Shown here: positions 1,909 through 27,262 of the stretch, in pieces
How the letters are laid out: each line of letters opens with the position of its first letter
How positions within the stretch are numbered: the first letter of the stretch is position 1
Source: a virus
Taxonomy: Duplodnaviria; Caudoviricetes
Reading direction: 5' to 3' (one strand)
DNA: 64,000 nucleotides
IMG/VR virus record: IMGVR_UViG_3300014208_000024
Coordinates: 192,001 to 256,000 of that record
Made by a program: the position numbers and the translations under genes
The notes under the pieces: model-generated
What the model was told of the DNA's origin: nothing
Seen by the model: only the letters and a program-made list of their open reading frames with translations
Database searches by the model: none

Positions 1909-3228
1909 ATGACAAAAACATCTGTTCACGAACAAATAGAAAATTTAATTAATAGTATTGGAAAAGAATTTAACACACTCAAATATGTTTATAACGATGC
2001 TAAGTTTGTTCCAGGAACTACTCCAGCTTATTATTCTGGTCCTTATTGGGATTCAACAGAAATAGTAGAAGCAATAAAATCTCTTATATTAGGCTCTTGG
2101 CTTTCTGCTGGAGAAAATGTTGATTTATTTGAAAAAGTTTTTTCTATTAAATTTAACCAAAGACATTCAGTTATGGTTAATTCTGGTAGCTCTGCTAATT
2201 TAATGTTAATTGCTGCATTAAAAAAAGTTTTTGGATGGAAAGATGGTGATGAAATAATTTTGTCTGTCGTTGGTTTCCCAACAACATTATCTGCAATTGT
2301 AATTAACAATTTAAAACCTGTCTTTATAGACATAGAAATTGATACTTTAAATTTTGATTTATCTTTAATTGAAAAAAATATAAATTCAAAAACAAAAGCA
2401 ATATTTTTATCTCCAGTTTTAGGAAACACATGTGATATTGATTTTCTCGTAGAATTATGTAACAAAAAAAACATTATGCTTGTTTTGGATAATTGTGATA
2501 GTTTAGGGAGTAAATGGAATGGGAAATTTTTAAACGAATACGCAATTGCATCTTCTCAATCTTTTTATCCAGCACATCATATTACCACTGGAGAGGGTGG
2601 AATGGTCTGTTCAGACAATTATGAAATCATAAAAACAGCAAGAAGTATAGCTTGGTGGGGAAGAGATTGTTCTTGTGTTGGATCTCAAAACATAATACCA
2701 AATGGAATATGTAAAAAAAGATTTGCAAAATGGCTTCCAGATTATGATAAAATTATAGATCACAAATATTTTTTTGTAAACTTAGGATATAATTTAAAAC
2801 CATTAGATTTACAAGGATCAATTGGACAAGTTCAAATAAAAAAATTTGATGAAATTCACAAAAAACGTGTTAACAGTAAAAATAAAATACAAAAAATATT
2901 TGAAAAATATATTCCAGAAGCAAGAATAATAAACGAATTACCAAAAGCATCAACATCTTGGTTTGGAACTCCAGTAATTTGTGACAATTATGATTTTAAA
3001 CAAAAACTTGTAACATATCTTGAAAAAAATAAAATACAAACAAGAAATTATTTTGCTGGAAACCTATTGTTACACCCCGCATACAAAGAATTTGGCGATT
3101 TTAAAGATTATCCAGTTGCAAATAGAGTTTTAGATGAAGTTTTTTTTGTTGGGGCCTCTCCACATTATAATGAAGAAATTTTTGGTTATTTCGAAACAGT
3201 TTTAAAAAATTTTAAAAATGAAAAGTAG
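1909..3228 (+). CDS. rfbH: RfbH/DdhC-type NDP-4-keto-6-deoxyhexose 3-dehydratase (DegT/DnrJ fold, PMP- and Fe-S-dependent)
   Basis: VNSGSSANL; SFYPAHHITTGEGG with His in place of the aminotransferase Lys; Cys-rich GRDCSC...GICKKRF; DHKYFF..LGYNLKP; C-terminal TRNYFAGNLLLHPAY. Confidence 0.85.
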   Translation: MTKTSVHEQIENLINSIGKEFNTLKYVYNDAKFVPGTTPAYYSGPYWDSTEIVEAIKSLILGSWLSAGENVDLFEKVFSIKFNQRHSVMVNSGSSANLMLIAALKKVFGWKDGDEIILSVVGFPTTLSAIVINNLKPVFIDIEIDTLNFDLSLIEKNINSKTKAIFLSPVLGNTCDIDFLVELCNKKNIMLVLDNCDSLGSKWNGKFLNEYAIASSQSFYPAHHITTGEGGMVCSDNYEIIKTARSIAWWGRDCSCVGSQNIIPNGICKKRFAKWLPDYDKIIDHKYFFVNLGYNLKPLDLQGSIGQVQIKKFDEIHKKRVNSKNKIQKIFEKYIPEARIINELPKASTSWFGTPVICDNYDFKQKLVTYLEKNKIQTRNYFAGNLLLHPAYKEFGDFKDYPVANRVLDEVFFVGASPHYNEEIFGYFETVLKNFKNEK

Positions 3229-3910
3229 ATTAATTTTAGGAGATGGTCTTTTGGGGAGTCAAATTCACAAAATCACAAATTGGGATTTTATAAGTAGAAA
3301 AAAAAATAAAATTGATTTTAATAACATTCATTCATATTATGATTATTTAAATAACTATGAAGAAATAATTAACTGCATTGCAAATACAAACACATATTCT
3401 ACAGACAAAGATTTAATGTGGAAAACAAATGTGGTCGGGCTTTCTGATTTGGTTGACACATGTTCAATTTGTAAAAAAAAGATTATTCATATTTCATCAG
3501 ACTATATTTATTCCAATTCAATAGAGAATGCATCAGAAGAAGATGTTCCAGTGCATTGCGCAAACTGGTATGGATACACAAAACTCATAGGAGATGCATA
3601 TGTTCAACTAAAAGCTGGTGAATATTTACTAATAAGAACTACACAAAAGAAAAAACCATTTACTCATGAATGTGCATTTATAAATCAAATTGGTAACTTT
3701 GATTATGTTGACAAAATAGCTCCAATAATAGTTGATTTAATTGAAAAAAATGCCACAGGAGTATTTAATGTTGGAACCGAATTAAAAACTATGATGGATT
3801 TAGCAAAACAAACTAAAAATGATGTTAAACCAGGAACTTATTTGTTTGATCCAACAATGCCTACAAATGTTTCTATGAATATTAATAAATTAAAAAATTT
3901 TTTAAAATAA
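3218..3910 (+). CDS. RmlD-like NDP-4-keto-sugar reductase (extended SDR)
   Basis: LILGDGLLGSQI nucleotide-binding loop, IIHISSDYIY, catalytic YGYTK (YxxxK), GVFNVG. Confidence 0.75.
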   Translation: MKSRLILGDGLLGSQIHKITNWDFISRKKNKIDFNNIHSYYDYLNNYEEIINCIANTNTYSTDKDLMWKTNVVGLSDLVDTCSICKKKIIHISSDYIYSNSIENASEEDVPVHCANWYGYTKLIGDAYVQLKAGEYLLIRTTQKKKPFTHECAFINQIGNFDYVDKIAPIIVDLIEKNATGVFNVGTELKTMMDLAKQTKNDVKPGTYLFDPTMPTNVSMNINKLKNFLK

Positions 3911-3916
3911 AATAAT

Positions 3917-4537
3917 ATGTACAACAGCCAGCACCTACAAGATAAATATATGAATGAAAATATCTTTAAAAATAAAAGAAATGGTGTTTTTTTAGATATT
4001 GGAGCCAATGATGGAATTGCTATAAACAATACTTTGTTTTTTGAAAAAGAACTTGGATGGACTGGGATATGTATAGAACCCTATCCTTCTATTTTTGAAA
4101 AACTAAAAAATAATAGAAGTTGCATTTGTATCAATGGTTGTATTGCTAAAGAAACGAAAAAAGATATTTTTTTAGAGGTTTCAGGATATCCAGCAATGCT
4201 TAGCGGATTAAAGTCGGAATATTGTGAAAAGCATTTACAAAGAATAGATTATGAAATAGGATTGTTTGGGGGATCTAAAAAAGAAATAGAAGTTCAATGC
4301 TACAACATAAACGAAGTCTTAACACAACATAATATGTTTAATATTGATTTTTGCAGCTTAGATATAGAAGGTGGAGAGTTTAATGTTCTTCAAACAATAG
4401 ATTTTGATAAAATAAACATACATGCTTTCAGTATAGAAAACGCATATAGTGAATCAAAATTTAAAAAATTTATGAAAACAAAAGGATATAAACTAATTGA
4501 TGTATTAGAGTGTGATGATATATATGTTAAACAATAA
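3917..4537 (+). CDS. FkbM-family methyltransferase
   Basis: FLDIGANDG...SNT-like NNTLFFEKELGWTGICIEP and IDFCSLDIEGGEFNVL motifs. Confidence 0.85.
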   Translation: MYNSQHLQDKYMNENIFKNKRNGVFLDIGANDGIAINNTLFFEKELGWTGICIEPYPSIFEKLKNNRSCICINGCIAKETKKDIFLEVSGYPAMLSGLKSEYCEKHLQRIDYEIGLFGGSKKEIEVQCYNINEVLTQHNMFNIDFCSLDIEGGEFNVLQTIDFDKINIHAFSIENAYSESKFKKFMKTKGYKLIDVLECDDIYVKQ

Positions 4538-4548
4538 TTTTTAAAGCT

Positions 4549-5199
4549 ATGTTAAATTTTTATGGTCAAGAAAGAAAAATTCTAGTTTATTGCGGAATCA
4601 ATAACGGAGATGGTTTAATGGAAGAAATTAACGATTATGATATTATATATGGATTTGATGCAAATATTGATAAAGTAAAAATTTGTCAAGAAAGATTTAA
4701 ATCTAACATGAAAAAAACTTTTAAATTCTTTAATTATGCCCTAACAGAAAATGATAATGAATTTATTAGATTTAATATATTTGAAAACTGGGATGCCTCT
4801 TCTACAATCGGAACAGTTAATCCAGAATATGGACATTTAAAAAACGAAAATGGAGTTTTACACAATTCGCCTATAAAATCAATAGAGGTAAAAACTATAA
4901 ATTTGGGAAATTTTTTAAAAAAAATGGGCATAAAAAAAATTCACAAATTAGTCACTGACTTACAGGGATACGATTTAACGGTTTTAAAAACATTAAAAGA
5001 GTTTATCGATACTCAAAATATTGATATGATTAAAAGTGAAGTGGAATGGGATAAAACCCCTCCAATTCACATCAATTCACCTTCAAATAAATTTTCTGAT
5101 TTTGAAAAACTTTTTGATGGAAAATACGAAAAATACTGGCATCTTCCAGAATCAGAAGAGTGGTGGGAAACTGATATGGTCTTTATTCCTAAAAAATAA
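4549..5199 (+). CDS. FkbM-like methyltransferase (divergent)
   Basis: LVYCGINNG SAM loop, IYGFDAN, FFNYAL, EVKTINLGNFL and LVTDLQGYDLTVLK resemble the FkbM family. Confidence 0.65.
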   Translation: MLNFYGQERKILVYCGINNGDGLMEEINDYDIIYGFDANIDKVKICQERFKSNMKKTFKFFNYALTENDNEFIRFNIFENWDASSTIGTVNPEYGHLKNENGVLHNSPIKSIEVKTINLGNFLKKMGIKKIHKLVTDLQGYDLTVLKTLKEFIDTQNIDMIKSEVEWDKTPPIHINSPSNKFSDFEKLFDGKYEKYWHLPESEEWWETDMVFIPKK

Positions 5200-5201
5200 G
5201 C

Positions 5202-7160
5202 ATGAAACAAAAATATACAATACAACTTGTACAATTTAACAACAAATATGGTTCACAAGTTTATTTGCCTTATAGTGTTGGAGTATTATCAAGTTACGTA
5301 TCAACAGATAAGTTTATATTAGATAAATTCGAATTTAAAGAATTTGTTTTTATTACAGAAAAATTACATGATTTAATTAAAAGAATAGGAAAAGTCGATA
5401 TATTGGGAATTTCTTGTTATAATTGGAACTGGGCGTTAAGTTTAAAATTGGCCGAAGAGGTTAAAAAAAACAACCCAAGTTGTTTAATAATTTTAGGAGG
5501 TCCACAAGTTCCAAATGAAACATCTGATTTTTTTAAAAAAAATCCATTTATTGATATTACAGTTCATGGAGAAGGAGAAAAAACTTTCTATGAAATATTA
5601 AAAAATTATTCACAATCTAATTTTGAAACTCTTAAGCATATTTCTGGAACTACATTCTATGATAGAAAAAACGATGAGGTTGTAAAATCGCTTCAAAGGA
5701 ATTTTATTGAAGACTTAAGTAGTATGCAATCTCCATATCTAGATGGAACATTTGATGATTTGTTAAATAACAAAAAATATGCTTGGATGATAATTTGGGA
5801 AACAAACCGTGGATGTCCTTTTAAATGTTCTTTTTGTGATTGGGGTTCTGCCACTAAATCTAAAATTAGAAAGTTTGACAATGACAGATTGATAAAAGAA
5901 TTAGATTACTTTGCAGAAAAAAAAATAGAACTTATATTTGGAGCAGATGCTAATTTTGGAATCTTCAAAAGAGATAAAGATTATGCAATTAAAATGACAC
6001 AGAATAAAAAAAAATATGGATATCCAAAACAATTTAGAGTTTGCTTTACTAAAAATTCAACAGATAAAGTTTTTGAATTGTCTAAAATCTTTGATGATGC
6101 TGGAATGAATAAGGGAATATCGATAAGTATGCAATCGCTAAACGAACAGGCATTGGTTAACATACAAAGAACAAATATTAAAATGGAATTTTTTAATGAA
6201 TTACAAAAAAAATATACTACAAATGGACTTATAACATATACTGAATTGATATTACCACTTCCAGGAGAAACTTATGATTCTTTTGTAGAAGGAATAGATT
6301 CTTTATTAAATAACTCACAACATTCTGGTATAGTTGTATATAACTGTGTTATAATGCCAAATGCAAAAATGGGAGATAAAAATTACCAGCAAGAATTTGG
6401 ATTGAAAAATGTTGAAATTCCAATATTTCAAGCACATTCTGATTTTAAGGATTCAAGTTGTATTATAGAAAAAGAAGAAATTGTTGTTGAAACAAAAACT
6501 ATGAATAAATATGATTACATTAGATCATTTAAATATAGTTGGATAATTCAAAGCATGCACACTCTAGGAATGTTGCAAGTTGTTTCTATAATATTTAAAT
6601 ATCATTTTGGAATTAAATATTCAGAATTTTATAGTAGTATTATAAAATATGGAGAAGACAATCCTTGTACAATTATTGGAAAAGAATTAAAAAAGATTGA
6701 TACATTATTAAACGGGGTACTATCTGGAAGTGGATTTGATCAGGAAGTTCCTGGGTTTGAATCTGTGTCTTGGCCTCCAGAAGAAGCTACATATTTGAGA
6801 GTATCAGAGAAAATTGATGACTTTTATTTTGAAATAAAAAAATTTTTACAAAGTAAGTATAAAAATTTATTTATAGATAACAAAGTTTTATCTGATGTTT
6901 TCGATTACCAAAAAGCCAGAAGTGTGAGATTTGATAATCAAGATTCACAAAGCATTTTGTTGTCTTATGATATACATAACTTTTTTGAAAACTGTAGAGC
7001 TGGAATTATCGATGAACTTAAAAAAACAAAAATGAACTTAATAACAAATCCAAAAATGAGTTTTACGGATAAAAAAGAATTTTCAAGAGAAATTGTTTGG
7101 TATGGAAGAAAGGGTGGAAAATTCTTTCATCCAATTAAAAATAAAATTGATATAAAATGA
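5202..7160 (+). CDS. Cobalamin-binding radical SAM protein (class B methyltransferase-like)
   Basis: N-terminal B12-binding domain (YLPYSVGVL, DILGISCYNWN, IILGGPQV, GEGE) followed by ETNRGCPFKCSFCDWG (CxxxCxxC), DANFG and ELILPLPGET. Confidence 0.85.
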   Translation: MKQKYTIQLVQFNNKYGSQVYLPYSVGVLSSYVSTDKFILDKFEFKEFVFITEKLHDLIKRIGKVDILGISCYNWNWALSLKLAEEVKKNNPSCLIILGGPQVPNETSDFFKKNPFIDITVHGEGEKTFYEILKNYSQSNFETLKHISGTTFYDRKNDEVVKSLQRNFIEDLSSMQSPYLDGTFDDLLNNKKYAWMIIWETNRGCPFKCSFCDWGSATKSKIRKFDNDRLIKELDYFAEKKIELIFGADANFGIFKRDKDYAIKMTQNKKKYGYPKQFRVCFTKNSTDKVFELSKIFDDAGMNKGISISMQSLNEQALVNIQRTNIKMEFFNELQKKYTTNGLITYTELILPLPGETYDSFVEGIDSLLNNSQHSGIVVYNCVIMPNAKMGDKNYQQEFGLKNVEIPIFQAHSDFKDSSCIIEKEEIVVETKTMNKYDYIRSFKYSWIIQSMHTLGMLQVVSIIFKYHFGIKYSEFYSSIIKYGEDNPCTIIGKELKKIDTLLNGVLSGSGFDQEVPGFESVSWPPEEATYLRVSEKIDDFYFEIKKFLQSKYKNLFIDNKVLSDVFDYQKARSVRFDNQDSQSILLSYDIHNFFENCRAGIIDELKKTKMNLITNPKMSFTDKKEFSREIVWYGRKGGKFFHPIKNKIDIK

Positions 7161-7954
7161 AGCAAATTATAAATTCTTACACATATCCAGATTGGCCAAA
7201 CATAGAGGTTGATTATAAAAAAAAAATTAGATATTTTGTTGATGGGTTCCATGGATATAATCCATCTGAAGATAGCTTTAAAGTCCTACATATAAAAGAG
7301 GCAGAAGCTATATGTAAATTAAGAGAAGAAGTTATAAAAAATCAAGAAAAATTTGATGTCATAATAACTTTTGATGAAGAAATTTTAAAAAATTGCAAAA
7401 ACTCTTATTTTTTCCCATTTGGAACAACTTGGGTCCACAAATACTCATTTATAGAAAAAAGATTTCAAATTTCAAACATCACTGGACATAAAGAAATAAC
7501 AGAAGGCCATATTTTAAGAAAAAAAATACACTATAAACAAACAAAAATTTCTAATCCAACCGATTTTTACATAAGTAAACATTTAGGTGTAGAAAATTTT
7601 AATAATAACAAAATTCTTGGAGATTTAAAAGAGCCTTTATTTGATTCTCAATTTCACATTTGTATAGAAAACTCAAAACAAAAAAACTATTTTACTGAAA
7701 AAATAATGGATTGTTTTGTAACCAAAACAGTTCCTATATATTGGGGATGTCCAAATATAAAAGATTTTTTTGACACAAGCTCAATCATCATAGTCAATGA
7801 TTTTAAGGAAATTATTGATGTTTGTAACAGTTTGACTTCTGAAAGTTATAAAAAAATGCTTCCTGGAATAGAAAAAAATTTGATTTTATCAAAAAATTAT
7901 ATAGATTTAGTTAGAAATATCAAGAAATTATTAATAGAAAAAATTTTATTATGA
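7157..7954 (+). CDS. Glycosyltransferase family 10-like (alpha-1,3-fucosyltransferase motif)
   Basis: FHICIENSKQKNYFTEKIMDCFVTKTVPIYWG matches the GT10 alpha-1,3 motif (F.l..EN....YvTEK.......vPiy.G). Confidence 0.8.
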   Translation: MKQIINSYTYPDWPNIEVDYKKKIRYFVDGFHGYNPSEDSFKVLHIKEAEAICKLREEVIKNQEKFDVIITFDEEILKNCKNSYFFPFGTTWVHKYSFIEKRFQISNITGHKEITEGHILRKKIHYKQTKISNPTDFYISKHLGVENFNNNKILGDLKEPLFDSQFHICIENSKQKNYFTEKIMDCFVTKTVPIYWGCPNIKDFFDTSSIIIVNDFKEIIDVCNSLTSESYKKMLPGIEKNLILSKNYIDLVRNIKKLLIEKILL

Positions 7955-8874
7955 AAGCAATAGTAACAGGAGCAAATGGTCTTTTGGGATCAGCATTGAA
8001 AAAACAACTTGGAGAAGATCATATTTATCACACAAGACAACAGTGTGACCTACTAAGAATAAACGAAATAAATCAATATTTTTACCATATAAACGAAACA
8101 GAGCATCCAGACACACTCATACACTGTGCCGCAAAGGTTGGTGGGGTGCAAGCCAATATAAATGATAATAGTGGATTCTTTTTACAAAATCTTTTTATAA
8201 ACAACAATGTAATCGGGACTGCAATTGTTTATGAATACAAAAACGTTGTAAACATATTGTCAACCTGTGTATTTCCTGACAAAGAAGTGATATATCCATT
8301 AACGGCAAACCAAATAGACAATGGAAAACCACATCCATCTAATCACGGCTATTCTTATGCAAAAAGACTTTTGTATTATTCAACAAAATACGCAAGAGAA
8401 ATAACTGGAAATAATTGGATTTCTATTATACCGACCAACATCTATGGTGAACAAGATAATTTTAATTTAGAAAACGGACACTTAATGCCAGCTTTAATTA
8501 ATAAAGCACACACAGCATCAAAATTAAATCAAGATTTTGTTGTTTGGGGAGATGGAACACCATTAAGACAATTTATATATTCAGAAGATTTGGCAAAAAT
8601 AATTTTATGGGCCATTGATAATTGGAAATCTGGAACCCCAATGATGGCTGTAAATGAAAAAGAATATTCAATTAAAGACATTGTTAACATTATAGCAGAC
8701 AGATTTAAAATTTCACAAGAAAGAATTAAATTTGACATTACAAAACCAAATGGACAATTTAGAAAACCAGCAAAACCTGATGTTCCTGCAGATTTTAAAT
8801 TTACACCGTTGGATGAAGGAATAAATAAAACAATTGATTGGTATTTAAAAAACATAAACAATGCTAGAAAATAA
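7951..8874 (+). CDS. fcl: GDP-4-keto-deoxymannose epimerase/reductase (GDP-fucose synthase Fcl/ColC family)
   Basis: VTGANGLLG, IHCAAKVGGV.AN, ILSTCVFP, GYSYAKR, PTNIYGEQDNF...HLMPALI, WGDGTPLRQFIYSEDLA, KPNGQFRK. Confidence 0.9.
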   Translation: MKAIVTGANGLLGSALKKQLGEDHIYHTRQQCDLLRINEINQYFYHINETEHPDTLIHCAAKVGGVQANINDNSGFFLQNLFINNNVIGTAIVYEYKNVVNILSTCVFPDKEVIYPLTANQIDNGKPHPSNHGYSYAKRLLYYSTKYAREITGNNWISIIPTNIYGEQDNFNLENGHLMPALINKAHTASKLNQDFVVWGDGTPLRQFIYSEDLAKIILWAIDNWKSGTPMMAVNEKEYSIKDIVNIIADRFKISQERIKFDITKPNGQFRKPAKPDVPADFKFTPLDEGINKTIDWYLKNINNARK

Positions 8875-10039
8875 TATGAAAAAAATTACATTAGTAAGCG
8901 ACACAATAAACAAAGATGACGTTAATGCAATAATAGAATGGTTAAAACAAGATCCAACTCCTAAATTAACAAAAGGCGATTTGACCATTTTGCTAGAAAA
9001 AAGATGGGCAGAAAAAGTTGGTACAAAACATTCTATATTTGTTAATTCTGGTTCTTCTGCTATTTTATTATTACTTGCAGCACTCAAGGAAACTGGAAAG
9101 TATAGTAATAAAATTGTTTGTCCAGCTCTTAGTTGGATAACAGATGTTAGCACTCCAATCTTATTAGGTTTTGATCCAATATTGTGTGATTGTAACTTGG
9201 AAGATTTGTCTTGTGATCTAAATGAGTTGGAAAATATATTTAAAAAAAACCAAAGTGACAAACCAATGCTTTTTATTTCTGTTTCTACTTTAGGAATAGT
9301 TCCAAAAATTAATGAATTACTTTGTTTATGTAAAAAGTATAACGTAGAACTAATAGAAGACAATTGTGAAAGCATGGGTTCCACTTACGAAAACAAGATG
9401 CTTGGATCGTTTGGCCTTGCATCAGTGTATAGTATGTACTTCGGTCACCACATATCAACAATAGAGGGTGGGTTTATTAATACAAGCGACGAAGAATTAA
9501 ATACAATTTTACTTTCAATGAGAAGTCATGGATGGAATAGAGATTTGTCATATGAAGCAAAACAAAGTTTAAAAAAAGAATGGAATACATCTGACTTTGA
9601 TGAGTTGTATTGCTTTTATTATCCAGGACTTAATCTTAGATCAACCGATCTTCAAGCGTTTATTGGATTAAGAGCAATAGAAAAACTTGATTTTTATAGC
9701 TTAATGAGAAATAAAAATTTTTTTTACTACCAAAAGACAATAAAAAACAATGAACTTAAAATAGAAAAAAGAGAAAACTCATTTATATCAAATCTTGGTT
9801 ATCCAGTTTTAAATAAAAATAGAAATTTAATTGCAAAAGAGTTACAAAAAAACAATATAGAATCAAGACCATTAATAGCAGGCTCAATAGCAAACAAACC
9901 GTTCTGGATTAAAAAGTATGGTAGATCATCTTTTACAAATGCAGATAAAGTTGATAAATTTGGTTTGTATTTGCCTAATCACCACGATTTATTAGAATGC
10001 GATATAGAAACTATAGCAAATATTATTAATAAATTTTAA
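8861..10039 (+). CDS. colD: ColD-like GDP-4-keto-6-deoxymannose 3-dehydratase (DegT fold, His at the Schiff-base position)
   Basis: FVNSGSSAILL, IEDNCESMG, YSMYFGHHISTIEGG (HH in place of Lys, as in ColD SHHIATMEGG), MRSHGWNRDL, FYYPGLNLRSTD, RPLIAGSI. Confidence 0.75.
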   Translation: MLENNMKKITLVSDTINKDDVNAIIEWLKQDPTPKLTKGDLTILLEKRWAEKVGTKHSIFVNSGSSAILLLLAALKETGKYSNKIVCPALSWITDVSTPILLGFDPILCDCNLEDLSCDLNELENIFKKNQSDKPMLFISVSTLGIVPKINELLCLCKKYNVELIEDNCESMGSTYENKMLGSFGLASVYSMYFGHHISTIEGGFINTSDEELNTILLSMRSHGWNRDLSYEAKQSLKKEWNTSDFDELYCFYYPGLNLRSTDLQAFIGLRAIEKLDFYSLMRNKNFFYYQKTIKNNELKIEKRENSFISNLGYPVLNKNRNLIAKELQKNNIESRPLIAGSIANKPFWIKKYGRSSFTNADKVDKFGLYLPNHHDLLECDIETIANIINKF

Positions 10040-10113
10040 AAAGTGTTTTATTATTGGATTTGATGGTTTAAAAATTTTTTACTATATAAAAACAAAAAAT
10101 ACAAAATAGAATT

Positions 10114-11142
10114 ATGAAAAAAATCGCATTTTGCACAGGAATAAATGGACAGGATGGAAGTTATCTATCTGAAATGTTGTTAGAGAAAGGATATGAAGTT
10201 CATGGAATGATTAGAAGGAGCAGTTCTTTTAATACAAAAAAGATAGACCACATTTATGATAAGTTAAAATTACATTTTGGAGACGTAACAGATCCGTTGG
10301 TTATTTCAGCTTTAATTTCAAAAATACAACCAGATGAAATTTATAATCTAGCAGCTCAATCACACGTTAAGGTTTCTTTTGAAATACCGTATTATACAGG
10401 ACAAGTAGATGCAATTGGAACATTAAACATACTTGAGGCCATTAAAAACCATTGTCCAAAAGCTAAGTTTTATCAAGCTTCTACATCTGAATTGTATGGA
10501 AAGGTTCAAGAAATTCCACAAAAAGAAACGACTCCGTTTTATCCAAGAAGCCCCTATGGTGTTGCAAAGCTTTATGGTTATTGGATTGTTAAAAATTACA
10601 GAGAAGCTTATGGGGTGTTTGCTTGTAACGGAATATTGTTTAATCACGAATCTCCTAAAAGAGGACTTACTTTTGTTACAAGAAAAATAACATCAGAGCT
10701 TGTAAAAATAAAACATGGAGAGAAAAAAACCCTTCTCCTCGGAAATTTGGATGCAAAAAGAGATTGGGGACACGCAAAAGAATATGTAGAAGGAATGTGG
10801 AGAATGCTTCAATTAGATGAACCAGAAGACTTTGTTTTAGCAACTGGAAAGGCATATTCTGTTAGACATTTTATTGAAGTTGCTACAGAATATCTTGGAT
10901 ATGAAATTGAGTGGATAGGAGATGGAATAGATGAAAAGGGATATGATAAAAAAACTGGACAATTATTAATTGAAATTGATCCAAAATATTTTAGACCATC
11001 AGAGGTTGATTTTTTACTTGGTGATGCAACAAAAGCAAAAGAAATATTGGGCTGGGAACCAAAAATTCACTTTAATGAACTAATTATAGACATACTAAAG
11101 GGAGACATTGAACAGTATGAAAAATTTGGAAAAATAGAATAA
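10114..11142 (+). CDS. gmd: GDP-mannose 4,6-dehydratase
   Basis: [109 protein letters not shown]. Confidence 0.97.
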
Positions 11143-11144
11143 AT

Positions 11145-11176
11145 TTTGCATTATTGAATTTTTTTTTATATATTTG
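11145..11176 (+). promoter_or_regulatory. Bacteroidota-type sigma70 promoter, full consensus
   Basis: TTTG (11145-48), exactly 20 nt, then TATATTTG (11169-76), 21 nt before ATG 11198. Confidence 0.7.
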
Positions 11177-11197
11177 CAAAAAAACAAAACAAAGACT

Positions 11198-12769
11198 ATG
11201 AAATTCAAAAACCTAAAACAGACAGATATTGATTATGCACGTAGAATCTACAAAGATAAATCAATGACTTTTCAACAGAGAATGAATATTTTAACAGATT
11301 ATTTCGAAAAAGATGAACGAACAATTCGCAGATGGTTTTCAAAAAAATTAGAAGGTTTTAAAGAAAAAGAAGATATAGTTGTAGAAAGCGAACATTTTAA
11401 ATTAGCAAAATTAGCACAAATTGATAAAGGGAGAAAATATTATTTAATTTCATCTGCTCAAAACAACACCCTTCCAAATGCAGAATTTATAAAAAACATA
11501 GAGGCATATAGTAATTTTTTAAAAGGACAATTAATTCTCGTTCCATATAGATACAAAAATCCAACATCAATATTTTCAAAAGCAGATAAAGAAAGTGAGT
11601 TTTGGCATCCGAGTCTTGTTAAATATTTGAACGCAAACAGAATAGATTTAAATTCAAAGTTAACTGTTCTTGGAGACATTAAAATTCAGCCTACAAATTC
11701 TGATCCATTGCGAGGAATTCAAGGTATAAGCTCTAAAAAAAGTTGTATTTTGGCACATCCATCAATACATTTTAAAACTATGCATGTTTTAGAAGGATAT
11801 GATAAAAAATTCATGATGACAACTGGCTCTGTAACAAAAGAAAACTATACTGACACTCTATTAGGAAAAAAAGGATCATTTAATCACACATATTCGTTTG
11901 TAATTGTAGAAATTGTTAATGAAGATAAATTTTATTGTAGACAAGTTACGGCAAATTCATCTGGATCTTTTACAGACCTTCATTTTAAAGTTTCTAATGG
12001 AGAAGTGAAAAAAATAAATAGTTGTGGTGCTGTTGTGTTTGGAGACATTCATTCGGGTGACCACAACAAAAAAGTTGTAGACTGTGGTATGGAATTGTGT
12101 AAAAAAATAAACCCCGAACACATTGTTCTTCACGATTTGTTTAATGCTAAATCCATAAATCATCACGAATTTAACAATCCTTTTATTCAATATGAATTGG
12201 AAAAAGAAAATAAAAATTCTTTGAAAAAAGAAATAGACGAGATGCTAAATTGGCTTGAACAATTAAATAAATTTAATGTTGTTGTTGTAAAAAGCAATCA
12301 TGATGATTTTGTATCAACATGGTTAATGCAAGATTGGCGCAAAATGAGCACCTGTAAAAATTCAATAGAATATGTAAAATTTGCATCAATATTATTAGAA
12401 GGAAAAGCAAAAAACGGAATTATTCCTTACTTAATAAATGAAAAATTTCCTAAAATCAAATGTTTAACGGCAAATGATAGTTTTATTGTTAATTCTTGGG
12501 AGCTTGCGCAACACAGTTCTGTTGGAAGTTCGGGAACAAGAGGGTCTTTAAATTCTTATAGTTCTTTAAGTATAAAATGTGTATTGGGACACGGGCATAC
12601 GGCCACTAGAAAAATGGGTACTATAATGGTTGGAACATTTACCAATTTACGTGTTGGATATAATAATGGCCCTAGCAACTGGGTAAACTCTTTAGTAATC
12701 ATTCACAATGACAAAAAAGCACAATTAATTATAATGGACGAGGATGGAAAATTTACTACTTTGAAATAA
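11198..12769 (+). CDS. Calcineurin-like metallophosphoesterase with N-terminal HTH-like region
   Basis: VVFGDIHSGD, IVLHDLFN, VVKSNHDDF and VLGHGHT motifs; N-terminal ERTIRRW helix. ATG at 11198 is used because the track's TTG start lies inside the promoter. Confidence 0.65.
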   Translation: MKFKNLKQTDIDYARRIYKDKSMTFQQRMNILTDYFEKDERTIRRWFSKKLEGFKEKEDIVVESEHFKLAKLAQIDKGRKYYLISSAQNNTLPNAEFIKNIEAYSNFLKGQLILVPYRYKNPTSIFSKADKESEFWHPSLVKYLNANRIDLNSKLTVLGDIKIQPTNSDPLRGIQGISSKKSCILAHPSIHFKTMHVLEGYDKKFMMTTGSVTKENYTDTLLGKKGSFNHTYSFVIVEIVNEDKFYCRQVTANSSGSFTDLHFKVSNGEVKKINSCGAVVFGDIHSGDHNKKVVDCGMELCKKINPEHIVLHDLFNAKSINHHEFNNPFIQYELEKENKNSLKKEIDEMLNWLEQLNKFNVVVVKSNHDDFVSTWLMQDWRKMSTCKNSIEYVKFASILLEGKAKNGIIPYLINEKFPKIKCLTANDSFIVNSWELAQHSSVGSSGTRGSLNSYSSLSIKCVLGHGHTATRKMGTIMVGTFTNLRVGYNNGPSNWVNSLVIIHNDKKAQLIIMDEDGKFTTLK

Positions 12770-13838
12770 TATTAGCCTTTAACAACATTTCTTCTATATT
12801 TTCATTATATTTTATAACTACAAGTAAAATTTTGTTGTTTTTACAATATTCCATTTTTATTTTATCTCTTTTTTGCTGAGATTTAAACATTTTTTCTCCA
12901 CCAAACCATTCAATGGGTTCATAGTGTTGTATTCCATGAAATTCTATGCAAATTTTTTTGTCTAACAAATAAAAATCAAAAGGAAGTGTATATTTATCAT
13001 AACAATCGATAAATCTTTTTTGCTGTTTAAAACAAATACCAAATTTAAGCAACATGAATTTAATTTGTGTTTCTCCAGTAGGTTCTTTACAAATTGGACA
13101 CCCTTTTCTTCGAAGGTGATTGTTTGGAGTCTGTAAAAATAAACCATGTTTATTACAAACTATACTTACTTTAATGTTGTCCCCTTTGTATTCTACAAAA
13201 TCATAATTATATTTATTGCCATGAATTTTTTCAAATTGCTTTATTAAAAAATCTGTTTTATTAACAGCATTGTGTTTAGTACATTTTACATGATAATTAT
13301 AAGGTAATATAAGGTGTTCTGTGTTATAATCTTTATTTATAATAGTTATTTTTGTATTGGCATTAATATAATTTATTTTTGAATAATCATATTTATCTCC
13401 ATGAATATTTTTAAATCTTTTAATTATATCATTATTTGAGTAATTAAAGTGTCTTCCATTACATTTTGGACATCCACTACCAAACATGTGACTTCCTGGC
13501 GTTTGTTTAAAATCTCCATGAAGTTTACATGTAATGATTATTTTTGTTTTTTCATCTTTATAAGTTACTTTTGAATAATCATATTTTTCTCCGTGCTTTT
13601 TAACAAATCTTTTTATTAAAACATCTAATGGGATTTTAAATTTATCAAATGCACATTTTTTACATATGCATCCATTTATGTGATCATGCGCTATTTGTAA
13701 AAATTCTCCATGTGTTGGACACACTATTTTTACTTTTGTGTGATTATTTATATATTCAACTAAACCATAATCATATTTATCTCCATGTACAAATTTAGCT
13801 TTTTCTACAAATTCTTGTGTTGTTAATTTTTTAGGCAT
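12756..13838 (-). CDS. Free-standing putative homing endonuclease: four HG(D/E/N)KY(D/N)Y repeats (DUF723-like) plus C-terminal PD-(D/E)XK/DUF559-like nuclease
   Basis: Repeats HGDKYDY..V.Y....K..I.C..HG.F.Q....H..G..C..C, of which repeat 3 lacks the Cys/His ligands; C-terminal LPFDFYL...KICIEFHGIQHY...RDKIK.EYC..NKI.L..IKY. ATG at 13838. Confidence 0.7.
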   Translation of the reverse strand: MPKKLTTQEFVEKAKFVHGDKYDYGLVEYINNHTKVKIVCPTHGEFLQIAHDHINGCICKKCAFDKFKIPLDVLIKRFVKKHGEKYDYSKVTYKDEKTKIIITCKLHGDFKQTPGSHMFGSGCPKCNGRHFNYSNNDIIKRFKNIHGDKYDYSKINYINANTKITIINKDYNTEHLILPYNYHVKCTKHNAVNKTDFLIKQFEKIHGNKYNYDFVEYKGDNIKVSIVCNKHGLFLQTPNNHLRRKGCPICKEPTGETQIKFMLLKFGICFKQQKRFIDCYDKYTLPFDFYLLDKKICIEFHGIQHYEPIEWFGGEKMFKSQQKRDKIKMEYCKNNKILLVVIKYNENIEEMLLKANIISK

Positions 13839-13839
13839 A

Positions 13840-13995
13840 TCATTTATTTTTAACCTGATTAAAATGTTCAATTAACAACCATTCAATAAACTTAGACTTA
13901 TTTTTTATTTCCTCTAAATGAATATATAATTCATTAGGTATTCTTACAGCAATTGTCTGTTTCTGCTTTTCTAAATTTATTTTTCTTCTTCCCAT
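13840..13995 (-). CDS. Small ribbon-helix-helix (RHH/CopG-like) DNA-binding protein, 51 aa, absent from the ORF track
   Basis: Hand translation MGRRKINLEKQKQTIAVRIPNELYIHLEEIKNKSKFIEWLLIEHFNQVKNK*: strand TIAVRIP, helix, then NKSKFIEWLL. Its TGA is 1 nt before the endonuclease ATG. Confidence 0.7.
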   Translation of the reverse strand: MGRRKINLEKQKQTIAVRIPNELYIHLEEIKNKSKFIEWLLIEHFNQVKNK

Positions 13996-17758: not shown

Positions 17759-18671
17759 CATACTTGTCTCTATATTTATAGACGACTTAAGTAATTTAAT
17801 CACATTAGAAGAAACTCTTTATAGTGTTTCTAAACAAAGTCATAATGTGGATTTATTAGTGTTGCACTCAGAAGATTTTTCTGAAGAACAACTTAATTTA
17901 TTAAAAAATGCACTTAACAATCCTAAACTTATTTTAAGAAAGAAAAATCAACAAGGGTTGTTAGAGGAACAAATATTAGAAACTGATGGAAGAGTAAATT
18001 ATTTTCTAAAATCATCTAGTATTAATAATTTTCCAAAAATTTTTAATGAAACATTTAATATTGCTTTAGAAAATGAATATGAATTCTTTTCTGCAATAGA
18101 ACCAAACGATGTTGTTGGGTTAAACTGGTTTTTGCAAGCAAACTTATATGCAATTGAAAATGAAAATATTTCAATTTTTTTCCCAATCATTAGAAATACA
18201 GTAAATGGAATTTTCAATGGTCTACTTAATGAAGCTCCTTGGGCTGAGGGACTCTCAGAAGAAGCTGGAAAAGTAGATATTAATCTTTTAAACCGCTTTA
18301 ATTGTATGGTTCCTATTGGTACAATGTTTAGAGTAAGTGGGATTAAAGAATATAGCGAACAAAAAGAAGATGGAAAATATTACCCATTCAAAGAAAGTAT
18401 AAAAATTAGTCATTATTATGAGTTTTTAATGAGAATGGTATATAATGATGTAAAAGCAATGTGTGTTCCAAGAATTGGATATGAATTTAAAGCAAAAAAC
18501 AGTGACGTTTTCAAACACATATATTGTAAAATTCCAGGTAATATTTCACAAATTCCAATAGAAAAAGGAGGAATAACTCCAGCTGAAGGAAAGTTTTGGA
18601 TGGATTTAGCTAAAAAAGAATATTTCTTTGATGAAGATAGAAATAAAGTCTATGAAGAAGAAAAACAGTAA
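17718..18671 (+). CDS. GT-A fold glycosyltransferase-like protein (GT2-like, divergent)
   Basis: LEETLYSVSKQ, FNIALENEYEFFSAIEPNDVV, FLMRMVYNDVKAMCVPRIGY pattern; follows the GT-B gene. Confidence 0.55.
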   Translation: MKESMNLKDLKNSNILVSIFIDDLSNLITLEETLYSVSKQSHNVDLLVLHSEDFSEEQLNLLKNALNNPKLILRKKNQQGLLEEQILETDGRVNYFLKSSSINNFPKIFNETFNIALENEYEFFSAIEPNDVVGLNWFLQANLYAIENENISIFFPIIRNTVNGIFNGLLNEAPWAEGLSEEAGKVDINLLNRFNCMVPIGTMFRVSGIKEYSEQKEDGKYYPFKESIKISHYYEFLMRMVYNDVKAMCVPRIGYEFKAKNSDVFKHIYCKIPGNISQIPIEKGGITPAEGKFWMDLAKKEYFFDEDRNKVYEEEKQ

Positions 18672-19668
18672 AAAGAATAAAAAACAAAGTTTTGATAAAC
18701 AAAATGAAAATGGAGTTTTGTTTTCTTTAAGTGAAGAGTGTGATGGAAGGTTAAAAATTGAAGACACTCTAAGCCCAGAGGATTCAGCTTTATTAAATGA
18801 AGAAATTGAAGATGAACTTTCTGAAGTAATCACTGAAGTCAAAGAATTAGCTCTTGATGAAAAAAGTATTAAAACCTATTGGACAGATGATACTGAAACT
18901 GGAATTATTGATTTTCTTTATTTAAACGAGTTCTTTTACGAAAATAGAATAAAAGAAGAACACGAAGAAGCAGAAAAAGAAAAAAGAGTTGTAAATAAAT
19001 TTTATTGCAATGAAATGCAAAGAAGAAAAGATGAAGTTTTACAAATTGTAGATCGTGCAGAACAAAGAGAGAAAATTTTTAGAAATAAAATAGAAACTCC
19101 GCTAAAAAAGCTGGTAGAGAATATTCTTTTTAACTACAGACTTTTTCTTCCAGACACAGACGCAAGAACACAACAAAAGGACTGTTTCACTTTTTTATAT
19201 CTTAAATTTTCAAATTTTAATCCATGGAGAAAAACAAAATCATTTTCTTATTTTGGAACCATAGCAAAACATTATTTTCTTGGAAACAAAAAAGAATATT
19301 CAAAAAGTGTAAAAATTCTTTATGATTATGATTCTAATAAAGAAGAAGCCGACAATAAAAAAATAGAAGATCCAAAACCATATGTAAAAGAAGATGTATC
19401 GTTAGACCTATTTAATTTTATTATTAATTCAATAGAAACAGAGTTAAATAAAAGTTCGTTGTCAAAAAATGATCAAAAAGTTGGTGATGCTATTATACAA
19501 ATATTTAAAAATCATGAAATATTAGGAGTTTACAATAAAAATCAAGTTTATCAACTGATCAAAGAAAATACTGGACTAGAAACAAAAGATATAACTTATT
19601 CCTTGCATAGATTTAGAATAGTCTATAAAGTTTTAAAACAAGATTTTGTGCAAAAAAGAGAAGATTGA
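18652..19668 (+). CDS. Phage sigma-factor-like protein (late-transcription sigma, gp55-like region 2)
   Basis: PLKKLVENILFNY, FNPWRKTKSFSYFGTIAKHYFL (compare gp55-type ..AFsYFt.Ia.n.f) and a C-terminal HTH-like NKNQVYQLIKENTGLETKDITYSL. The track start 18628 is also possible. Confidence 0.55.
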   Translation: MKKKNSKKNKKQSFDKQNENGVLFSLSEECDGRLKIEDTLSPEDSALLNEEIEDELSEVITEVKELALDEKSIKTYWTDDTETGIIDFLYLNEFFYENRIKEEHEEAEKEKRVVNKFYCNEMQRRKDEVLQIVDRAEQREKIFRNKIETPLKKLVENILFNYRLFLPDTDARTQQKDCFTFLYLKFSNFNPWRKTKSFSYFGTIAKHYFLGNKKEYSKSVKILYDYDSNKEEADNKKIEDPKPYVKEDVSLDLFNFIINSIETELNKSSLSKNDQKVGDAIIQIFKNHEILGVYNKNQVYQLIKENTGLETKDITYSLHRFRIVYKVLKQDFVQKRED

Positions 19669-25360: not shown

Positions 25361-27262
25361 ATGGCAAATCTAAATTTAAACGCACAATTTACTCAGTCAA
25401 TAGTTGGAATTAAACAAGTTAACTATCTAAGTAGAGATTTTCAAACCATAAGAACAGATTTAATTAATTATTTAAAAGCTTTTTTCCCAGATCAATGGCA
25501 AGATTTCAATGTTGCTTCCCCAGGTATGGCGCTTTTGGAATTAAATTCTTATGTTGGAGATTTACTTTCTTATTCAATTGATAAGAAATATAATGAACTT
25601 TTTATAGATGGAGTAACACAAAGAAGTTCTGTGTACAGAATGGCAAAAACATTTGGATTTAAGGTTCCAGGAGTTCGTCCTGCACTTACAATTGTAGACG
25701 TAATTGTAGAAGTTCCAACTACAGCAAATGGGCCCGATTATTCATATACACCAGTTTTAAGAACAGGACTTCAAATTGGAGGAGGGGGACAAACTTTTGA
25801 AACTGTTTATGATATCGATTTTTCTAGTGACTTTAGTGAAGACGGTAAAGCAAATAGAACAATACAACCAGTATTAAACGGAAACCAAGATCTTGTAAAA
25901 TATAGAATTCTCAAAAGAGAAATGGTTAAAGCTGGAGTTTCAAAAATATTAAAAGTAGAAATTGTATCTGGAGAAGAAAAACCATTCATGCAAATTACAC
26001 TTCCAGAAACAAATGTTTTGGAAATAGTTGATGTAATGGTAGAACCTGGGGTTGGATTAAATAAAACTCCTACATATGAAGATTTTCATGACAACTCAAA
26101 AAGATTCTGGGAAGTTGATTATTTAGCAACAGACAAAATTTTTGTTGAAGATGATAATGAACCATCAGTTAATGGAGTAAAAATAGGAAAATACTTACAG
26201 GTATCAAAAAGATTTATTAAAGAATTTATGTCTGATGGAACTTGTAAATTAACTTTTGGCGGGGGATCTGAAAATTATGATTCATATGAAGAATATTTAA
26301 CAAATTTAACAAGTACAAGTTGTTGTGATATAACAACCAGCCTCAATGTATCTTCTTTACTTTTAAATCCATCATTAGGAGAAATGGTTCCTGGAAATTC
26401 AACGCTGTATATAAAATATAGAATTGGTGGAGGAATTTTAAGTAACGTGGGATCAAATGTTTTACAATCTGTTGGTAATGTAAAAGGGGTTATATTAGGA
26501 TCTGATGCATCTATAAACCAATCAGTGTTATCTTCTATTAGAGCAAATAACCCAATTCCAGCTATAGGCGGAAGAGGTCTTCCTACTGTTAGTGAAATAA
26601 AGAATTTTATAGCTTCAAATTTTGCTTCACAAGATAGATGTGTTACCCTAGAAGATTACATTTCGAGATCATATCAAATACCTGGAAAGTTTGGTGCCCC
26701 ATTTAGAATTCATGGAGAAGTGAATGATAATAAAGTTATCTTATATATACTAACTAAAGATGCAAATGGAAGATTAAACGCAACATCAACAGGGGAAGTT
26801 AAAAGAAATTTGGCAACTTATGTGATTCCATATAGAATGATTAATGATTTTATTGAAATTAATGATGGAAAATTTGTAAACATAGAAGTTCAAGCTGATT
26901 TATTTATAGATAAAACATATAATGGTAGCGAAGTAAAATTAAATTCTATATTAAAAATTAAAGACTTTTTTGATACAGATAATTGGCAAATGAATCAACA
27001 TATATATGTTTCTCAATTAACAGACATTTTGAGAGAAATTCCTGGAGTAATAAACGTTGTTGATGTTAGATTTTATAATATTGAAAATGGTGCGTATTCA
27101 TCTACTCTTTGTTCACAAGCTACTGGAGGGAGAACGGAAGATACTACAGCTGGGGTTTATAAAACTCAAATAGAATTTATAGACAATACTATATTTAGTA
27201 CCCCACTTTCTATGTTCGAAGTGCGTTTCCCTGAAAAAGACATAAAAATCAGAATTGCTTAA
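25361..27262 (+). CDS. Baseplate wedge protein, T4 gp6/baseplate-J-like
   Basis: YLSRDFQTIRTDLINYLK.FFPDQWQDFN.ASPGMALLELNSYVGDLLSY.ID; YRIGGG...N; AIGG...TVSEIK...SQDRCVTLEDY. Confidence 0.85.
   Translation: MANLNLNAQFTQSIVGIKQVNYLSRDFQTIRTDLINYLKAFFPDQWQDFNVASPGMALLELNSYVGDLLSYSIDKKYNELFIDGVTQRSSVYRMAKTFGFKVPGVRPALTIVDVIVEVPTTANGPDYSYTPVLRTGLQIGGGGQTFETVYDIDFSSDFSEDGKANRTIQPVLNGNQDLVKYRILKREMVKAGVSKILKVEIVSGEEKPFMQITLPETNVLEIVDVMVEPGVGLNKTPTYEDFHDNSKRFWEVDYLATDKIFVEDDNEPSVNGVKIGKYLQVSKRFIKEFMSDGTCKLTFGGGSENYDSYEEYLTNLTSTSCCDITTSLNVSSLLLNPSLGEMVPGNSTLYIKYRIGGGILSNVGSNVLQSVGNVKGVILGSDASINQSVLSSIRANNPIPAIGGRGLPTVSEIKNFIASNFASQDRCVTLEDYISRSYQIPGKFGAPFRIHGEVNDNKVILYILTKDANGRLNATSTGEVKRNLATYVIPYRMINDFIEINDGKFVNIEVQADLFIDKTYNGSEVKLNSILKIKDFFDTDNWQMNQHIYVSQLTDILREIPGVINVVDVRFYNIENGAYSSTLCSQATGGRTEDTTAGVYKTQIEFIDNTIFSTPLSMFEVRFPEKDIKIRIA

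Follow-up and report, generated by a model that had tools for sequence, protein, structure and literature searches.

Colitose, a 3,6-dideoxyhexose, has so far been regarded as a bacterial O-antigen sugar. In O-antigen loci, Gmd, ColD, and ColC act in turn to make GDP-L-colitose, while Gmd followed by Fcl makes GDP-L-fucose, and perosamine synthases keep the Schiff-base Lys. Besides Escherichia coli O55:H7, the GDP-L-colitose pathway is found in E. coli O111, Yersinia pseudotuberculosis, and Vibrio cholerae O139. A 2022 review of nucleotide-sugar dehydratases (PMC8987622) describes ColD as having a His in place of the Lys, lacking a [2Fe-2S] cluster, and using pyridoxamine 5'-phosphate (PMP) that is regenerated from glutamate, with E1 and SpnQ differing in their [2Fe-2S] motif; the 3-dehydratases that it lists are from bacteria only. 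Among viruses, the chlorovirus PBCV-1 encodes GMD and GMER for GDP-L-fucose (Tonetti et al. 2003, as cited in PMC8987622), and cyanophages such as S-SCSM1 and P-SSM2 carry "cell-wall" genes for Gmd, Fcl, and a fucosyltransferase (PMC9602691). Here we describe four adjacent genes, for a GT10 glycosyltransferase, an Fcl-family reductase, a ColD-type dehydratase, and Gmd, in a 64,000-nucleotide (nt) stretch of phage DNA (the window), which comprises bases 192001 to 256000 of the 372,283-bp IMG/VR virus record IMGVR_UViG_3300014208_000024, rated complete by CheckV. Judged from its gene content, this phage operon probably diverts host GDP-mannose to GDP-L-colitose plus GDP-L-fucose.

Assignment of the four cassette genes

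The open reading frames (ORFs) reported in a first-pass annotation of the window were all confirmed, each on the plus strand: the gene for a GT10 glycosyltransferase (alpha-1,3/4-fucosyltransferase family) of 265 amino acids (aa) at 7157 to 7954, that for a 307-aa Fcl-family GDP-4-keto-6-deoxyhexose epimerase/4-reductase at 7951 to 8874, that for a 392-aa ColD-type PMP-dependent GDP-4-keto-6-deoxymannose 3-dehydratase at 8861 to 10039, and gmd, for a 342-aa GDP-mannose 4,6-dehydratase, at 10114 to 11142. The placement of the GT10 gene upstream of the others in that annotation held but the order in which its prose gave the remaining genes did not, as gmd is last and the DegT-fold gene is separated from the GT10 gene by the Fcl-like gene. 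Overlaps of 4 nt (GT10/Fcl) and 14 nt (Fcl/ColD) join the first three genes, another 4-nt overlap links the GT10 gene to a radical S-adenosylmethionine (rSAM) gene, and a 74-nt AT-rich gap lies upstream of gmd. The family and active-site assignments predicted for all four proteins were demonstrated by sequence comparison.

The product of the 8861 ORF, a DegT_DnrJ_EryC1 protein (178 bits), had been singled out for a His-His pair in place of the Schiff-base Lys, as in ColD, and this was borne out. Its best match among solved structures was E. coli O55 ColD (2gms, 177 bits), followed by E1 (122 bits) and perosamine synthase (99 bits). The active-site motif FGHHISTIEGG, at residues 194 to 204 (nt 9440 to 9472), falls on SHHIATMEGG of ColD in the HMMER alignment, and the first His, His196 (codon 9446 to 9448), corresponds to the catalytic His188 of ColD, whose role is shown by the H188N and H188K mutant entries 3b8x and 2r0t; in a multiple alignment, the same column holds Lys in ArnB and WecE. 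Where E1-type enzymes have the iron-sulfur cysteine site WGRDCxC...C, the 8861 protein reads HGWNRDLSYE, without Cys, and the ColD-specific CESMG, HGW, R219, R331, and N248 are present. Of 101 columns with at least 95% conservation across 67 canonical ColD sequences, it is identical at 62, including W88, D159, E162, S183, H188, H189, R219, N248, R250, and R331, and differs at Ser187 (Gly), Met193 (Ile), and 37 others. A gmd gene and an fcl-like gene stand beside the His-His gene in approximately 60 of the 80 nearest cellular loci. By family and predicted active site, the 8861 protein is ColD-type.

It was also placed in a careful tree of 40 rows, with which a quick tree of 104 rows agreed. His-type enzymes formed one clade (support values, 100/100), within which E1 (95/91) and ColD-like enzymes (100/96) were separate clades, and Lys-type enzymes formed the outgroup. 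The 8861 protein fell in the ColD-like clade, as the first-pass annotation would have it, apart from both E1 and the Lys-type aminotransferases. Within that clade, it belonged to a subclade of viruses and bacteria of the candidate phyla radiation (CPR) (100/98), together with metagenomic phage proteins, the cyanophages ACG-2014f and S-CAM7, and Parcubacteria/Gracilibacteria; the sister of this subclade was the canonical clade holding E. coli O55 ColD (92/88). That the protein is instead an aminotransferase of the GDP-perosamine synthase type, with a 4-amino-4,6-dideoxy sugar as the product of the cassette, is very improbable. The DegT fold, the 99-bit match to perosamine synthases in the PDB, and the GenBank label "aminotransferase" on the ACG-2014f homologue would all fit such an enzyme, but His replaces the Schiff-base Lys, as in all characterized 3-dehydratases, the His-His pair is kept in 116 of the 120 closest database homologues, and the protein groups with ColD with the Lys-type enzymes outside.

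In the same careful tree, the ColD subclade of phages joins sequences from CPR bacteria with 94/90 support (L018, L019, L031, and L047, from Parcubacteria and Gracilibacteria metagenome-assembled genomes, with GHHMSTIEGG). This grouping may reflect gene exchange or may hint at the host, the phage being from groundwater, a setting in which CPR bacteria abound. The Gracilibacteria copies appear split under translation table 11, which would be a sign of UGA recoding.

Gmd was identified by a TIGR01472 score (534.2 bits) well over the equivalog cut-off of 415 and by a Pfam GDP_Man_Dehyd score of 478 bits, which upholds its first-pass name. Host GDP-mannose, proposed as the starting point in that annotation, is the likely input of the pathway because no NTP_transferase was found in the genome.

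For the gene directly upstream, Pfam, motif, and fold concur on a GT10 enzyme, again as first annotated. The 7157 protein scored 40.3 bits with Glyco_transf_10 (PF00852; cut-off, 23.9) and carries the alpha-1,3-fucosyltransferase motif FxLxFENSxxxxYxTEK as FHICIENSKQKNYFTEK at residues 166 to 182 (nt 7652 to 7702), and its R121, E171, N172, E181, and K182 are invariant across 11 homologues. The structure model had a predicted local distance difference test (pLDDT) score of 75.5, with residues 1 to 37 below 50, and in Foldseek 17 of its 18 best PDB matches were GT10 enzymes of the GT-B fold, among them Helicobacter pylori FucT (2nzw; E value, 2.4e-8; template modeling score, approximately 0.5), plant FUT11/13, and human FUT9. 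GT10 homologues also occur beside or near gmd/ColD genes in Rhodobacterales and Prochlorococcus loci. The 7157 protein would thus be expected to transfer a 6-deoxy- or 3,6-dideoxy-L-hexose.

The 7951 protein had been called an Fcl/ColC-family epimerase-reductase. The family stood, with the catalytic residues intact (S104, C106, Y134, K138, and H177, aligned with E. coli S107, C109, Y136, K140, and H179), but membership in either the bacterial ColC clade or the bacterial Fcl clade did not. Its best match among solved structures was human GDP-fucose synthase (GFUS; 219 bits), ahead of ColC (137 bits) and E. coli Fcl (131 bits), and on the Fcl equivalog model NF047922 (cut-off, 500) it scored 180.7 bits, whereas E. 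coli Fcl reached 551 and E. coli ColC 304. In a tree of 95 rows, 43 of them in the ColC clade, that clade held the ColD-adjacent reductases of most bacteria, including E. coli O55 ColC, and the Fcl clade took in those of Firmicutes, Methanobrevibacter, and cyanophage ACG-2014f; a ColD enzyme with a non-ColC partner reductase is therefore common. The 7951 protein and its phage relatives formed a third, long-branch clade outside both. Its diagnostic columns were mixed, some ColC-like, some Fcl-like, and several neither, and its nearest Atlas clusters were viral, from Nucleocytoviricota and Uroviricota, and labeled "GDP-L-fucose synthase-like." Eight gene neighborhoods of this lineage were sampled. 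In four of these (the window, L005, L137, and L138), the gene abuts or overlaps a ColD-like gene; L137 and L138, whose Fcl-like proteins are 56 to 58% identical to the 7951 protein, also have the Fcl-like/ColD-like gene overlap. The other four have Gmd alone, and the lineage therefore appears to be basically a fucose synthase that was repeatedly paired with ColD.

Predicted products of the pathway

In the scheme that we propose, the rSAM, GT10, Fcl-like, and ColD-like genes and, past the 74-nt gap, gmd would be expressed in infection as a single operon. Gmd would convert GDP-mannose to GDP-4-keto-6-deoxy-D-mannose. The ColD-type enzyme would form a PMP ketimine with this substrate, from which His196 as the base would expel the 3-OH to leave GDP-4-keto-3,6-dideoxy-D-mannose, and L-glutamate would regenerate PMP, so that no iron-sulfur cluster or reductase partner would be needed. 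C-5 epimerization and C-4 reduction by NAD(P)H, both carried out by the Fcl-family enzyme, would then give GDP-L-colitose, and any substrate escaping the ColD-type enzyme would give GDP-L-fucose. The GT10 enzyme, probably along with a GT11-like enzyme encoded approximately 7 kb upstream, would put the L-sugar on a glycan built by the many soluble transferases of the surrounding sugar island. In this scheme, acceptance of the 3-deoxy substrate by the reductase, the donor of the GT10 enzyme, and the acceptor are inferred. The most likely products would be GDP-colitose and some GDP-fucose, and the wording "colitose and/or fucose" of the first-pass annotation was the right hedge, as the reductase lies outside the ColC clade and its lineage is also found in phage cassettes with only Gmd and Fcl.

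Several points weigh against colitose as a product. The 8861 protein shares only 33% identity with E. coli ColD, belongs to a sister subclade and not to the canonical ColD enzymes, and has Gly at the position of the invariant Ser187. The reductase is outside the ColC clade, reached 181 of the 500 bits set for the Fcl model, and has true fucose synthases as its nearest characterized relatives; four sampled members of its lineage (L140, L142, L143, and the P0213 context) accompany Gmd without ColD, and it may prefer the 3-hydroxy substrate. The two enzymes would also compete for one substrate. Finally, other tailoring candidates in the island (the TokK-like rSAM enzyme, the FkbM methyltransferases, and a short RmlD-like short-chain dehydrogenase/reductase [SDR]) could yield a product other than colitose.

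In an alternative that we regard as rather unlikely, Gmd, a fucose synthase, and GT10 form mainly a GDP-L-fucose cassette and the product of the ColD-type enzyme is a side branch to a non-colitose sugar; a different SDR of the island might reduce that product without C-5 epimerization, or the TokK-like rSAM enzyme might C-methylate it. The closeness of the reductase lineage to human GFUS and to the viral fucose synthase-like clusters would fit this, as would the gene pair Gmd-Fcl alone in three other lineages and the order GT10-FkbM-FkbM-Fcl-Gmd in related jumbo phages. The rSAM gene, moreover, overlaps the GT10 gene and accompanies ColD in close relatives, and in other phages the ColD-like gene stands beside split transketolase genes, hinting at branched-chain sugars. 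However, joint use is favored by the overlap between the stop of the Fcl-like gene and the start of the ColD-like gene, which recurs in two more distant lineages, and no other full-length 4-reductase is encoded beside ColD, the RmlD-like SDR (230 aa) being paired with an E1-like gene. In addition, the stereochemical course that leads to fucose would give colitose from the 3-deoxy substrate, as deduced from the established GMER mechanism. We therefore continue to favor GDP-L-colitose with some GDP-L-fucose as the output.

The transketolase arrangement was seen at L008, positions 4375 to 8149, and also in L009 and L010, where split genes for transketolase N and C, together with an extra SDR gene, precede a ColD-like gene (61% identical); the arrangement is reminiscent of how two-carbon branched 3,6-dideoxy sugars such as yersiniose are made. 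The P0213 context, with GT10-FkbM-FkbM-Fcl-Gmd and neither a ColD-type nor an rSAM gene, was found in 450- to 530-kb contigs of related huge phages, and the ColD gene therefore looks like an insert that retargeted an older phage fucose cassette. A more far-reaching proposal, which we hold to be doubtful, is that the virus-specific ColD subclade would be a plug-in between fucose-synthase and gmd genes, retargeting the cassette to a 3,6-dideoxyhexose that soluble cytoplasmic enzymes would join into a methylated or alkylated glycan on virion proteins, as phage-autonomous glycosylation and not remodeling of host lipopolysaccharide (LPS).

Phage setting and neighboring candidate tailoring genes

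The window has a GC content of approximately 27 to 29%, and the stretch is contained in groundwater metagenomes from two studies; none of the datasets listed as containing it was an RNA dataset. The four-gene cassette is embedded in a long co-oriented run of sugar genes that begins approximately 13 kb before the window with GT2-like, DUF5672, FkbM, and GT11-like genes and continues within it with a GT17-like gene, a second DegT-fold gene, a short RmlD-like SDR gene, two FkbM methyltransferase genes, and the B12-dependent rSAM gene. Baseplate and neck genes flank this island, with a baseplate-wedge gene at 25361 to 27262 of the window. No convincing transmembrane segment was found in the 36 proteins scanned. 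The GT17-like gene lies at 230 to 1123 of the window (88 bits), and the GT11-like gene at L004, positions 18478 to 19470 (36 bits); in close relatives, the GT10 gene is followed directly by a GT11 gene, which in turn adjoins the Fcl-like gene. Far from the island, a lone GalE/4,6-dehydratase-like SDR is encoded on the minus strand at G000:C1:7596-8345 (L135); it scored best with the GalE model, at 151 bits, which is under the cut-off.

A record assembled from a metagenome, with many cellular homologues of the four genes, would be compatible with bacterial contamination, a chimeric assembly, or functionless, decaying remnants in the phage. We consider all of these extremely improbable. A bacterial insertion or chimera had been named in the first-pass annotation as something that would undo its proposal, but the module has a GC content of 0.290, compared to 0.286 for the window, its reading frames are intact and overlapping, and structural genes of the phage lie on either side of the island. 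The closest homologues of the dehydratase (60 to 83% identity) are on phage-like contigs of 26 to 540 kb with T4-type structural genes, whereas the best cellular ones are only 30 to 38% identical, and in related contigs from three samples the genes run rSAM-GT10-GT11-Fcl-ColD-Gmd and then T4 gp13. An independent groundwater study contained 69% of the sampled words of the stretch; the matching pieces were short, low-depth Logan contigs, and those listed were free of mismatches (run X2). Apparent joints in the Logan contigs, with sides of 20 to 32 letters, were taken as noise, and nothing was concluded from them.

The rSAM gene, at 5202 to 7160 on the plus strand, encodes a putative cobalamin-dependent radical-SAM methylase of the TokK/CysS type, with Pfam B12-binding and Radical_SAM domains, a score of 294 bits with the KedN5 family (NF033712), and PDB matches to TokK (337 bits) and CysS (220 bits). 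It lies beside the two FkbM methyltransferase genes and stays upstream of the GT10 gene in related phage contigs, and it probably belongs to the same operon and acts on the sugar or glycan. The enzyme strongly resembles iterative C-methylases and may lengthen an O-methyl group or add a methyl group to a carbon of the sugar. In that event, the phage would need host B12 for its glycan.

A second His-type sugar 3-dehydrase gene, of the iron-sulfur E1/RfbH type, lies at 1909 to 3228 on the plus strand. Its 439-aa product matched RfbH (NF011936) over its full length at 344 bits (cut-off, 423), has PAHHITTGEGG at residues 221 to 231 and a DCSC...C motif, and falls in the E1 clade; the gene overlaps that of the 230-aa RmlD-like SDR, and the pair spans 1909 to 3910. 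By its predicted type, this dehydrase is outside the GDP-colitose route. No PF00175 or PF00111 domain was found that could mark a reductase partner, and the genome yielded no CDP-glucose genes, E3-like reductase, or plant-type ferredoxin; the host would therefore have to supply the substrate and the electron donor of the enzyme.

Downstream of gmd, at 11174 to 12769, a 531-aa protein has GDIHSGDH, SNHDD, and GHGH motifs behind a charged N-terminal region, giving it the look of a calcineurin-type metallophosphoesterase; it had no match in Pfam, NCBIfam, or the PDB, and related phage contigs have a 519-aa counterpart after gmd. Just past the cassette and antisense to it, an endonuclease-type DUF723/DUF4379 zinc-finger protein is encoded at 12756 to 13871 on the minus strand, and a GIY-YIG/NUMOD3 endonuclease takes this position in the related jumbo-phage contig of the P0213 context. 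The site beside gmd therefore looks like a landing spot for homing endonucleases.

Comparison with known systems

No report of a viral colitose pathway was found in searches of the literature on colitose or on 3-dehydrases and 3-dehydratases in phages, viruses, and cyanophages. The novelty implied by the first-pass annotation was nevertheless too high, since genomes of cultured cyanophages already carry the cassette; bacteria are known to use this chemistry, and the same genes are found together again in many aquatic phages. If the prediction is true, 3,6-dideoxyhexoses would cease to be exclusively bacterial products, and many aquatic phages would make colitose in infection. Phage genes labeled "aminotransferase" and "fucose synthase" would then need reannotation, and a rare, easily detected sugar would offer a handle on what the "LPS/cell-wall" islands of large phages glycosylate.

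The phage transferase shares with H. pylori FucT (2nzw/2nzy) its Pfam family, a donor-binding motif with TEK at its end, and the fold, FucT being its best fold match. It differs in being approximately 18 to 20% identical and 265 aa long, and its acceptor side is not comparable, as residues 1 to 37 of the model are of low confidence. Its donor may be GDP-colitose instead of GDP-fucose. Like the viral GDP-L-fucose systems of PBCV-1, S-SCSM1, and P-SSM2, the cassette combines a viral Gmd with an Fcl-family enzyme that would feed viral transferases. Those systems have no 3-dehydratase, whereas the window has a ColD-type gene between the reductase gene and gmd.

The GDP-L-colitose locus of E. coli O55:H7 holds the same trio (Gmd, ColD/WbdK, and ColC/WbdJ), with a His-for-Lys dehydratase, a 307-aa reductase whose gene overlaps that of the dehydratase, and a fucosyltransferase-family enzyme nearby, annotated as an alpha-1,2-fucosyltransferase, which we take to be the GT11 colitosyltransferase WbgN. 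In contrast to this locus, the phage dehydratase, at 33% identity, is in the sister (viral/CPR) subclade with Gly for Ser187, the phage reductase is not of the ColC clade, and the adjacent transferase is GT10 where that of O55 is GT11. The phage island also lacks manB/manC, wzx, wzy, and membrane proteins of any kind.

Also among the closest systems are the cultured T4-like cyanophages S-CAM7 (KU686212) and ACG-2014f (NC_047713), which have gmd, fcl, and a His-type dehydratase gene (GHHMTT(I/V)EGG) of the same viral/CPR ColD subclade in a glycan island. In S-CAM7, the genes are annotated as gmd, "GDP-L-fucose synthetase," and "putative CDP-4-keto-6-deoxy-D-glucose-3-dehydrase" (GHHMTTVEGG), with GT11 after the trio; in ACG-2014f, unclassified glycosyltransferases follow, and both islands are next to tail-fiber genes. 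Compared to the window, these phages have the bacterial order gmd-fcl-colD and lack GT10 and rSAM partners; their dehydratases share approximately 29 to 32% identity with the 8861 protein, and their reductases are of the bacterial Fcl clade, with an NF047922 score of 420 bits for ACG-2014f versus 181 for the window. As both phages are cultured, they make the predicted synthesis of colitose by a virus testable.

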